A stretch of DNA of 64,000 nt from Candidatus Staskawiczbacteria bacterium (GTDB lineage: Bacteria; Patescibacteriota; Minisyncoccia; Minisyncoccales; Staskawiczbacteraceae), in NCBI GenBank assembly GCA_963761865.1, contig CAVXIE010000002.1, positions 274,595 through 338,594 of the forward strand, read 5' to 3'. The stretch's first letter is position 1. Each line of letters begins with the position of its first letter. This document shows, in pieces, positions 2,474 through 31,062 of the stretch. A program made the position numbers and the translations under genes. The notes below the pieces were generated by a model that was given only the letters and a program-made list of their open reading frames with translations, was not told where the DNA came from and did no database searches.

Positions 2474-3274
2474 ATGAAACAAATAATTATTGCCAATTGG
2501 AAAATGAATCCAGCTACCCAAAAAGAGGCTAAGCAACTTTTTGATGGTGTAAAAAAGGGCATTAAGAACACTAAAATAGATGTTGTTATTTGTCCGCCGT
2601 TTGTTTATCTTGAAGAAATATCCGGTCTGACACTTGGCGCACAGGACGTTTTTTATAAAGAAAAAGGCGCGTTTACCGGAGAAATTTCACCGCAGATGTT
2701 AAAAGACTTAAGGGTTGAATATGTAATAGTTGGCCATTCGGAAAGAAGAAGATATTTTGGCGAAACGGATGAAACGATAAATAAAAAGATAAAAGCCGTG
2801 CTTGATTCCAAACTAAAGCCTATTTTTTGTGTTGGCGAAAATGAGGGAGAAGATAAGCAAACGGTTGTTGAAAGGCAGATTGCAGAAGGCTTGAAAGATA
2901 TTTCGCGCGATAGCTTAAAAAATATTATTGTAGCTTATGAGCCGGTGTGGGCGATTAGCTCGTCCCCCACTAACTTTGAATCAAGACAGGGGAGGGGCGA
3001 CATGAGTTCAAAACTAAATTCAAAGTTAGTGGGGGATAAAGTAAAAAATTGCTCTATTGATGAGACTATGAAATCCATTCTGCTGATAAGAAAGACTCTT
3101 TCAAATTTATTTAGCAGGCAATTGGCCGACAAAATGCCAATTCTTTATGGTGGAAGTGTTACCTCCAAAAATTCGGCGCAATACTTAAAAGATGCTGGCG
3201 TAGATGGTTTGTTAGTTGGCGGAGCGTCGCTGGACGCCGTAGAATTCTCAGAAATAGTAAAATCCGCTGATTAG
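2474..3274 (+). CDS. tpiA: triosephosphate isomerase with a 24-25 aa in-frame insertion in the AIGTG lid region
   Basis: NWKMN, VGHSERR, AYEPVWAI, LYGGSV motifs; insertion SSSPTNFESRQGRGDMSSKLNSKLV between WAI and GDK. Confidence 0.85.
   Translation: MKQIIIANWKMNPATQKEAKQLFDGVKKGIKNTKIDVVICPPFVYLEEISGLTLGAQDVFYKEKGAFTGEISPQMLKDLRVEYVIVGHSERRRYFGETDETINKKIKAVLDSKLKPIFCVGENEGEDKQTVVERQIAEGLKDISRDSLKNIIVAYEPVWAISSSPTNFESRQGRGDMSSKLNSKLVGDKVKNCSIDETMKSILLIRKTLSNLFSRQLADKMPILYGGSVTSKNSAQYLKDAGVDGLLVGGASLDAVEFSEIVKSAD
2964..3035. repeat. 72-nt palindromic element inside tpiA (perfect 18-bp arms, 36-nt loop), in frame
   Basis: cccccactaactttgaat (2964-2981) is the exact reverse complement of attcaaagttagtggggg (3018-3035). 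Confidence 0.9.
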
Positions 3275-8510: not shown

Positions 8511-8579
8511 GAGCCGCAGCGAAGACTTACCCCGCCCTCTATGCTAGATGAGAAATTCAAAAGCTTAGAGGGCGGGGTA
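8511..8579. repeat. GC-stem palindromic element (family A)
   Basis: gagccgcagcgaagactt + taccccgccctcta (8528-8541) ... tagagggcggggta (8566-8579). Confidence 0.85.
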
Positions 8580-8609
8580 ATAATTAATTCACTACGTTCA
8601 TAAATTATT

Positions 8610-30835: not shown

Positions 30836-31062
30836 GGACGCTCGGGCATTTTCCCAAAAGAGCCCGGGGGCGCTAGGCGAGGCACTTTTGGCGAAAATGC
30901 CCTCGCTATAGGTTTTAAGCCAGTTGTAGAACCCAGCCCTCTATGCTATATGAAAAAGTTCAAATGCTTAGAGGGCTGGGTTGCCTGCGGGCTCTGCAAC
31001 TGGAAATGTTGTGGATTTATATAAAAAATTAAACCCACGAGCGTGATGCTCGTGGGTTTTTA
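30836..31062 (+). ncRNA. conserved structured element downstream of mreB, copy 1 (family G), ends in its own terminator
   Basis: first 70 nt differ at about 1 position from 36490-36560; long hairpin, ccagttgtag/ctgcaactgg stem, terminator acccacgagc/gctcgtgggt plus T-run. Confidence 0.55.
30932..30980. repeat. GC-stem palindromic element (family A) nested inside the family G element
   Basis: cccagccctcta ... tagagggctggg; the paralogous copy at 36583-36602 has an unrelated small hairpin here. Confidence 0.8.

Follow-up and report, generated by a model that had tools for sequence, protein, structure and literature searches.

A palindrome in the tpiA lid of a Candidatus Staskawiczbacteria genome as a probable miniature copy of a hairpin-shaped mobile DNA family

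We analysed a 64,000-nt stretch of contig CAVXIE010000002.1 (assembly GCA_963761865.1, positions 274,595 to 338,594; hereafter the window), which belongs to a 0.996-Mb, 87% complete genome (G000) of Candidatus Staskawiczbacteria, within the candidate phyla radiation (CPR, Patescibacteria), and in which the triosephosphate isomerase (TIM) gene tpiA carries a perfect palindrome among the codons of its catalytic lid. The best explanation of the observations taken as a whole, to which we give a probability of roughly 80%, is that the palindrome represents a miniature, non-autonomous member of a family of hairpin-shaped mobile DNA in Candidatus Staskawiczbacteria. About 50 copies with the same arms (CCCCCACTAAYTTTG...) were found in 8 of 79 genomes of this group, distributed over three genera, and the arms that stand in frame in some 40 housekeeping genes also bracket a tiny gene for a GIY-YIG protein, of the same kind as the hairpin-specific single-stranded DNA nucleases named Ssn. 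One miniature copy was inserted between the codons of the loop-6 tip of tpiA, without target duplication and with a net gain of 78 nt, and copies in genes would be kept only in the stop-free frame, to be read as a hydrophilic, probably disordered, excursion of the protein surface.

The tpiA palindrome and its dispersed relatives

The inverted repeat consists of two 19-nt arms, TCCCCCACTAACTTTGAAT on the left and ATTCAAAGTTAGTGGGGGA on the right (Table 1), which are 100% complementary and separated by 36 nt; the initial annotation had described the exact repeat and its spacer correctly, with arms of 18 bp that fall one base short. Its statements that the palindrome lies in frame within the TIM gene, here a 266-aa open reading frame (ORF), and that the window holds no other copy proved right, the arm being present in the 64 kb solely as the tpiA pair (0.06 matches expected by chance). 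Folded as RNA, the 101-nt region attains -36.1 kcal/mol (z = -5.5), a stability not matched by any of 200 shuffles. Chimeric reads can create palindromes, and we considered an assembly artefact together with a native, non-mobile loop common to related TIMs; both are hardly credible, because the palindrome stands unchanged in a Logan contig of run ERR11593882, which agrees with the window at all but 1 of 2373 bases (the result of a second assembler, perhaps on the same run), because the same arms recur in assemblies of other projects and in metagenome contigs, and because none of the related TIMs compared has a homologous loop. The insert is absent from 20 TIMs of the same genus and, among 5.8 billion database proteins, from the 44 TIMs closest to this one, so that the alignment proposed at the outset bears out an insertion. 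Its range was placed with these two sets of TIMs, with filled and empty RecJ nucleotides and with the empty sites of LigA and SpoU; the 72-nt, 24-codon unit first described does keep the frame open, but it is the core only, the alignment with the 20 relatives giving a net gain of 26 codons (78 nt), that is, the 72-nt core plus 6 nt.

The family was delimited by scanning 79 species genomes with a single-arm pattern, a control pattern having no matches in the element-carrying genomes, and single-arm matches in G043 and G044 were discarded as chance resemblances inside ordinary genes. The genomes G061 and G068 hold about 16 copies each, copies occur in only 4 of the 26 genomes of the genus, and further ones are found on metagenome contigs. 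The genome search for the arm that the initial annotation had suggested brought to light, besides tpiA, two further full copies and one with cargo in G000. The two full copies, of 72 nt, lie in frame in the genes of NAD-dependent DNA ligase (LigA) and of a SpoU/TrmH-like methyltransferase, both read in the phase of the tpiA copy as (S/P)PTNF...SKLVG(D/G), and the host genes across the family include these two as well as those of RecJ, IscS, IleRS, PpsA, a nucleotide kinase, a solute-binding protein and others. These traits, dispersed hairpin repeats in frame in housekeeping genes and empty sites in relatives, uphold the parallel with Rickettsia palindromic elements drawn from tpiA alone.

An element is built of inverted arms of 18-19 nt, (Y)CCCCCACTAAYTTTGRR ... 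YYCAAARTTAGTGGGGG(R), around a free loop of 30-57 nt; its core measures 66-93 nt and the net gain is the core plus 6 nt. Empty sites were recognised in relatives for LigA and SpoU (within the genus), RecJ (in G041) and TIM, and the filled and empty RecJ sequences place the borders at 4 nt + core + 2 nt, without target duplication, a symmetric model of 3+3 nt being rejected as it demands a native TAR stop codon at the site. The target-site duplication of a miniature inverted-repeat transposable element (MITE) is thus missing in LigA, TIM and RecJ, where no direct repeat flanks the insert; the other hallmark of a MITE, terminal inverted repeats common to the miniature copies and a longer coding element, is present. 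Regularity of the flanks is limited to a T-Y-R / R-A-R preference.

The loops of different copies are mostly unrelated, and related loops were found at the same site only, in SpoU, PpsA and one further gene. Copies at one site in different genera (SpoU in G000 and G007; PpsA in G010, G061 and G068) have loops 69-73% identical and inner stems that differ but are compensated. Other pairs of copies in one gene look independent; in LigA, those of G000 and G061 are separated by two residues and their loops show no relation. Unshared loops are odd for a simple copy-and-paste process and would call for either fast loop divergence or a mechanism by which the loops are not copied. In the loops at L079, L086 and L124 (PpsA) and in that of the LigA copy of G000 (C2:117196-117267), a second, degenerate right arm (CAAAATTAGTGG... 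/ TCGAAGTTGGGATGGGG) comes first, in a layout L-R'-spacer-R, which hints that some loops derive from duplicated arms. As a general origin of loops, decayed inner arm copies were rejected: arm-like fragments (p < 0.05) are present in only 5 of 12 loops, a figure suggestive for the PpsA and LigA copies and not beyond them. Readings as integron attC sites, CRISPR-like repeats or diversity-generating retroelements were dropped in view of the symmetric arms, the location inside ORFs and the lack of integrase, cas or reverse transcriptase genes nearby, as judged without a dedicated search.

Some host genes show further peculiarities. The SpoU-like proteins of G000 (C2:239910-240494) and G040 (L045) have 15-25 extra residues (PPVGESQAAFFEGK... 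/ PPIGENKSTFLKRKVLGRAPNLLG) that are missing in 10 other members of the genus and may represent a decayed older element. LigA of G040 (C3:20175-20773) matches in two pieces about 100 nt apart, in different open frames of 422 and 304 aa, for which a frameshift, an additional insertion or a fault of the assembly could account. The hairpin-bearing PpsA of G061 (L071, contig JBDRST010000001.1) also seems to have an intein-like insertion, from C-F-D-G-N-T-K to H-N-C, with an endonuclease-like middle.

The arms vary in a paired manner. The foot pair 4-53 occurs as UA (25 copies) or CG (23), with S..D or P..G in the protein, and pair 15-42 as CG (35) or UA (16), the latter exchange being synonymous on both arms (AAC/AAG to AAT/AAA). 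Three inner pairs switch among GAA/TTC, GGG/CCC, GAG/CTC, GAT/ATC and AAA/TTT, whereby residues change (E/S, G/P and so on) while pairing stays, and none of 500 shuffles reaches the observed covariation score. The covarying positions lie outside the search pattern, save pair 15-42, which is degenerate (Y) in it. To judge from the aligned copies, the hairpin is under constraint.

Reading frame and the fate of the lid

The length is a multiple of three in 41 of the 43 short copies (66, 69, 72, 75 or 93 nt; binomial p = 1e-17 against an expectation of one third), and 40 of the 46 paired copies are inside ORFs of at least 140 aa, always in a single stop-free frame. Arms of the multiple-of-three copies are stop-free in just one of the three registers, by symmetry on either strand, and therefore copies persist in coding DNA only in the open frame. 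The encoded peptide is (S/P)PTNF(E/G/D)-loop-(S/P)KLVG(D/G), with x11-14 between PTNF.. and KLVG, and its sense-frame loops, rich in K, S, G, E and N (mean hydropathy -1.5), contain no stop in any of 40 cases, when shuffled loops stay open in 41%. The initial annotation had left three fates open for tpiA, a tolerated surface loop, removal at the RNA level or inactivation of the gene; the lengths and the stop-free loops best support the first, and on these family-wide constraints the tpiA insert is most likely translated and not removed. Cutting of the hairpin from the mRNA at its stem in an intron-like manner, or its skipping by the ribosome, either of which would yield a normal TIM, is very unlikely even with a stem so long, perfect and stable (-36 kcal/mol) and with family arms that bracket a tRNA gene in G000 and, in relatives, would supply the P3 helix of RNase P RNA, both of them RNA-processed contexts. 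Excision needs neither lengths in multiples of three nor stop-free or hydrophilic loops, and is disfavoured for this reason; besides, GGN ACN GGN (G-T-G) is not regained by any joining of the tpiA flanks, as it should be on removal of an RNA intervening sequence, and the codons of the tip are altered in their own right; a search of Rfam gave no family at the tpiA locus with E <= 0.01.

The tpiA product matches Pfam PF00121 at 5.5e-77, with the match split in two around the insert, and TIGR00419 at 145.7 bits, above the cut-off of 130.6, and it is the sole TIM match in G000. TIMs of the same genus (n=20) read AYEPVWAIGTG-KNCS at the lid and the window TIM reads AYEPVWAI-SSSPTNFESRQGRGDMSSKLNSKLVGDKV-KNCS: the tip AIGTG has become AISS, followed by the 26-residue insert and V, and no longer passes as a loop-6 tip, with S, S and V (or S, K and V, depending on the placement of the borders) where its G, T and G should stand. 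That the lid is interrupted had been seen at the start, but the motif GDK then taken as its downstream half is no remnant of GTGK, because SKLVG-(D/G)-(K/E) is the flank consensus of the element itself, to which the G and K of GDK belong; the native K of GTGK is that of the downstream KNCS. The remainder of the enzyme looks intact, as had been stated: the catalytic residues N8, K10, H88 and E156 are present and, like Y225-S228 (YGGS) and G249-G250 (GGAS), are invariant columns that it shares. The structure prediction proposed in the initial annotation, run in AlphaFold2 with 45 sequences, keeps the barrel, at a pLDDT (predicted local distance difference test) above 90, and leaves insert residues 163-188 disordered, at a pLDDT below 50.

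The reading we rate best for this protein is that the insert is translated and tolerated, probably at reduced activity; since the G-T-G of the lid tip is lost, catalysis is probably impaired, and perhaps not abolished. A functionally dead tpiA, with the lid destroyed, the tip drifted and an open frame that reflects no more than a recent event or a different role of the protein, is an unlikely outcome that still deserves to be reckoned with. The three tip residues replaced are each at least 90% conserved among the 44 homologues, a 26-residue segment predicted to be disordered stands within the lid, and no TIM match was found in 2 of 22 high-quality genomes of the genus, so that the enzyme is perhaps dispensable in this lineage; moreover, deletion of the loop-6 tip is said to have lowered kcat by a factor of about 1e5 in the work of Pompliano, Peyman and Knowles of 1990. 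Against such a loss stand an intact ORF that retains the catalytic and phosphate-binding motifs, an average divergence (rank 21st of 45) and five departures from conserved columns, three of which are the tip G, T and G themselves and only two lie elsewhere, in a range of 0-8 among homologues. The tip also seems less rigid in the clade, given a TIM homologue from a CPR Logan assembly (P0009) with a 4-residue insertion at the same place (AISLGDGRG) and three genus relatives with the tips STG, GNG and GTD; on these sequences, it seems to be an unusually plastic site.

Nuclease cassettes, other cargo and a candidate mode of spread

Longer versions of about 300 nt were found in G035, G040 and G041, where the arms CCCCCCACTAATTTTG...CAAAATTAGTGGGGGG enclose a 265-nt centre that encodes an 88-aa single-domain GIY-YIG protein, its stop codon being the TAG inside the right arm. 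The 88-aa ORFs match PF01541 over residues 2-71 (E = 1.8e-17 and 6.5e-19) and no other domain, arms CCCCCCACTAATTTTG are on both sides at the three cassette loci (L083, L099 and L103), and the G040 cassette is pseudogenised by an internal stop. A paralogue in G068, 58% identical, stands between the halves of a 21-nt inverted repeat (ATCCCTCACTAACTTTGCTCT) that differs by one base from the tpiA-type arm. Of the remaining GIY-YIG paralogues that we examined in G000 and relatives, most have an inverted-repeat pair of their own. A second arm type (ACCCCGCCCTCTA) also occurs in gene-less miniature copies in G000, two of them within the window.

By the side of these findings, we noted that this second hairpin family combines arms (A)ACCC(C/A)GCCCTCTA with a loop of 24-25 nt that is itself conserved, and that two more GIY-YIG genes of G000 have their own inverted repeats, one at C1:21998-22237 (a 21-nt perfect repeat, GCCCCCACACCAAACAAGTTT) and one, with an internal stop, at C2:537333-537572; judged by eye, a tRNA-like sequence apparently comes directly after each of them. 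The place of the arm-nuclease-arm cassettes in the RNase P RNA is exactly that of helix P3, with the 5' strand of P2 on one side and that of P4 on the other, and the cassette arms would by their sequence serve as the P3 stem; in the rnpB of G000 (C3, near 236497, minus strand) this position is taken by a native P3 hairpin, which is short (CTCTTAAC-GCAA-GTTAAGAG). Another kind of cargo is seen at C2:16949-17087 of G000 (L007:1381-1519), where T-type arms of 14 bp surround a 111-nt 'loop' with an intact tRNA-Leu(TAG). When this element is removed in silico the flanks join into a type II tRNA gene, which ARAGORN finds only then (Leu, with several choices of border), and hence the copy lies within the anticodon loop of a tRNA gene already resident there, to which it brings a tRNA-Leu of its own.

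By analogy with Ssn nucleases and the SRM hairpins that flank their genes, the arms, once single-stranded, would pair into a hairpin for the cognate small GIY-YIG nuclease to recognise; the enzyme would then nick the foot of the hairpin and so lead to its excision and re-insertion, or to its copying. To our knowledge, GIY-YIG enzymes have no strand-joining or strand-transfer chemistry. Spread may accordingly be sought in cutting and ligation by host repair, copying by template switch, or homologous replacement after DNA uptake. The copies of G000 are probably stranded, as no cognate nuclease gene is present in that genome.

Several observations weigh against the proposal of a mobile hairpin family. 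In G000 a GIY-YIG gene with tpiA-type arms was not found, its four paralogues having other arms, and G061 has about 16 miniature copies, yet no cognate cassette was found there either; the nearest solved relatives of the nuclease are UPF0213 proteins (1ywl, 1zg2) and Slx1. Beyond the flank preference no defined target motif emerged, nor did we find a target duplication, an intermediate of transposition or two copies at different sites with a common loop. The central 13 nt of each arm, save pair 15-42, are invariant by construction of the search pattern, an ascertainment bias, and the covariation could in part stem from subfamily founder effects or arm-to-arm repair instead of selection. Conserved and covarying arms around drifting loops, the persistence of related loops at the same SpoU and PpsA sites across genera, and the modulation of transformation in Neisseria by Ssn and NTS (PMC11893778) would also suit arms that benefit the host and are selected by it, either as a protein-binding or RNase III site that co-regulates housekeeping genes or as an NTS-like recombination or transformation signal. 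This we hold to be improbable, given a distribution as patchy as that described above across the genomes and within the genus, host genes that are functionally unrelated and sites that vary by genome, as the neighbouring LigA insertions exemplify, and cassettes that carry a nuclease gene, which is broken in G040 as is a paralogue in G000.

A bolder extension of the mobile-family explanation, which we put forward as tentative and in our own estimate rather doubtful, is that arm-nuclease-arm units and gene-less hairpins form an active, undescribed class of transposable elements, driven by a bare single-strand nuclease of the GIY-YIG type (Ssn/Slx1-like) and not by a DDE, HUH, serine or tyrosine enzyme, that they move as single-stranded DNA and that the TIM with a 26-residue lid insert is active. 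If so, a hairpin would carry cargo (the nuclease gene, a replacement tRNA-Leu) and move without target duplication, settling in surface loops of proteins, in helix P3 of RNase P RNA and in the anticodon loop of a tRNA, with its own tRNA cargo to offset the damage; CPR genomes would gain a steady supply of new peptide loops, and a candidate mechanism would be at hand for the in-frame palindromes of Rickettsia-type genomes.

Table 1. Coordinates of the tpiA element and of related features. Bare positions are those of the window; other locations carry the genome, contig or locus handle.
Feature	Location	Strand	Remarks
tpiA ORF	2474..3274	+	266 aa with insert (relatives 239-253 aa); PF00121 and TIGR00419 matches
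Altered lid-tip codons, 5' side	2956..2962	+	AGC TCG = S S; relatives G T
Range of the net 78-nt (26-codon) insertion	2960..3040	+	borders ambiguous: 2960-3037 (4 nt + core + 2 nt, cf. the RecJ pair) or 2963-3040
Left arm of the hairpin element	2963..2981		T+CCCCCACTAACTTTGAAT; in-frame reading (S)PTNFE; same arm in about 50 copies in 8 genomes
Loop of 36 nt, specific to the tpiA copy	2982..3017		in-frame reading SRQGRGDMSSKL(N)
Right arm	3018..3036		ATTCAAAGTTAGTGGGGG+A; in-frame reading (N)SKLVG(D)
Arm-GIY-YIG-arm cassettes	L083:1501-1796 (G041); L099:1081-1376 (G040); L103:558-850 (G035)	that of the RNA	inside the RNase P RNA gene
Second hairpin family	8527-8580; 30930-30982; G000:C2:271020-271072; G000:C3:59837-60046		arms also bracket a GIY-YIG gene on contig C3

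Significance and relation to known systems

Palindromic elements inserted in frame have been known from Rickettsia for 25 years, and we know of no enzyme identified as moving them. Because the arms found in housekeeping genes also bracket a GIY-YIG gene, one 88-residue protein and a handful of oligonucleotides are enough to put the question of what spreads such elements to a direct test. The family further suggests how a minimal genome may gain protein loops: a hairpin stop-free in one frame would be filtered by selection to permissive surface sites, whereupon the loop would be free to evolve and the stem would stay paired. The tpiA copy is in itself a natural experiment on a much-studied catalytic lid, with 26 residues at the loop-6 tip and G-T-G lost in the only, and otherwise well-conserved, TIM of the organism, and inserts of this kind explain split domain matches and 'long' orthologues in the annotation of CPR genomes. 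In the literature searched, we found no description that links in-frame palindromes to the CPR, or Rickettsia palindromic elements (RPEs) to GIY-YIG proteins.

RPEs, reportedly described by Ogata et al. in 2000, are dispersed palindromes of 100-150 bp, conserved over their whole length, that lie in frame in the housekeeping genes of alpha-proteobacterial endosymbionts, are translated at permissive, surface-exposed sites and are patchy among relatives. The Staskawiczbacteria element is likewise dispersed, palindromic and hairpin-forming, lies in frame with the ORF kept open and is missing in relatives; unlike an RPE, it has only its arms conserved and a copy-specific loop, measures 66-93 nt (net +6 nt), lives in a CPR host and has a coding parent form. 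We regard it as an analogue and not as a member, having set it beside RPEs by description.

Ssn proteins are GIY-YIG enzymes with a single domain and a length of about 94 aa; they attach to the hairpin repeats on either side of the genes that encode them and cleave the single-stranded DNA alongside (Chenal et al., Nat Commun 2025, PMC11893778). The system is defined by site-specific cleavage of this kind, without activity on dsDNA or RNA. The authors of that work remark on the IS-like architecture of Ssn/SRM units, and describe NTS/SRM repeats as hairpins of 20-50 nt with short loops and an orienting non-palindromic flank, 2% of NTS being in genes; CPR or Patescibacteria are not mentioned (PMC11893778). 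The Staskawiczbacteria units resemble these in a protein of about 90 aa with the GIY-YIG domain and no other, in a gene bracketed by an inverted, hairpin-forming repeat, in dispersed gene-less copies of the repeat and in a repeat sequence proper to each paralogue. They differ in a stem of 18-19 bp with a free loop of 30-57 nt that is able to hold a nuclease or tRNA gene, and in that about 90% of copies (40 of the 46 paired) are in frame in coding genes, versus the 2% of NTS; furthermore, Ssn enzymes are biochemically characterised, and the CPR proteins, described here from sequence, are candidate members of the Ssn clade (cd10448).

The REP/BIME repeats with their RAYT proteins, and the 'peel and paste' elements IS200/IS605 with their PATE/MITE derivatives, depend on an HUH/Y1 transposase, and REPs are extragenic. 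The element described here is similar to both in the absence of target-site duplication and in non-autonomous copies that outnumber the coding parent and, by analogy, in hairpin ends that would be acted on as single-stranded DNA; the difference lies in its sole gene, that of a GIY-YIG nuclease (no search for Y1 transposases was made). On the sequences compared, the Staskawiczbacteria element thus appears to work like an RPE and to be built like an Ssn/SRM unit, and to depart from both in four respects: the long stem with a free loop, the almost exclusive residence in frame within genes, the cargo-bearing forms and the CPR host.

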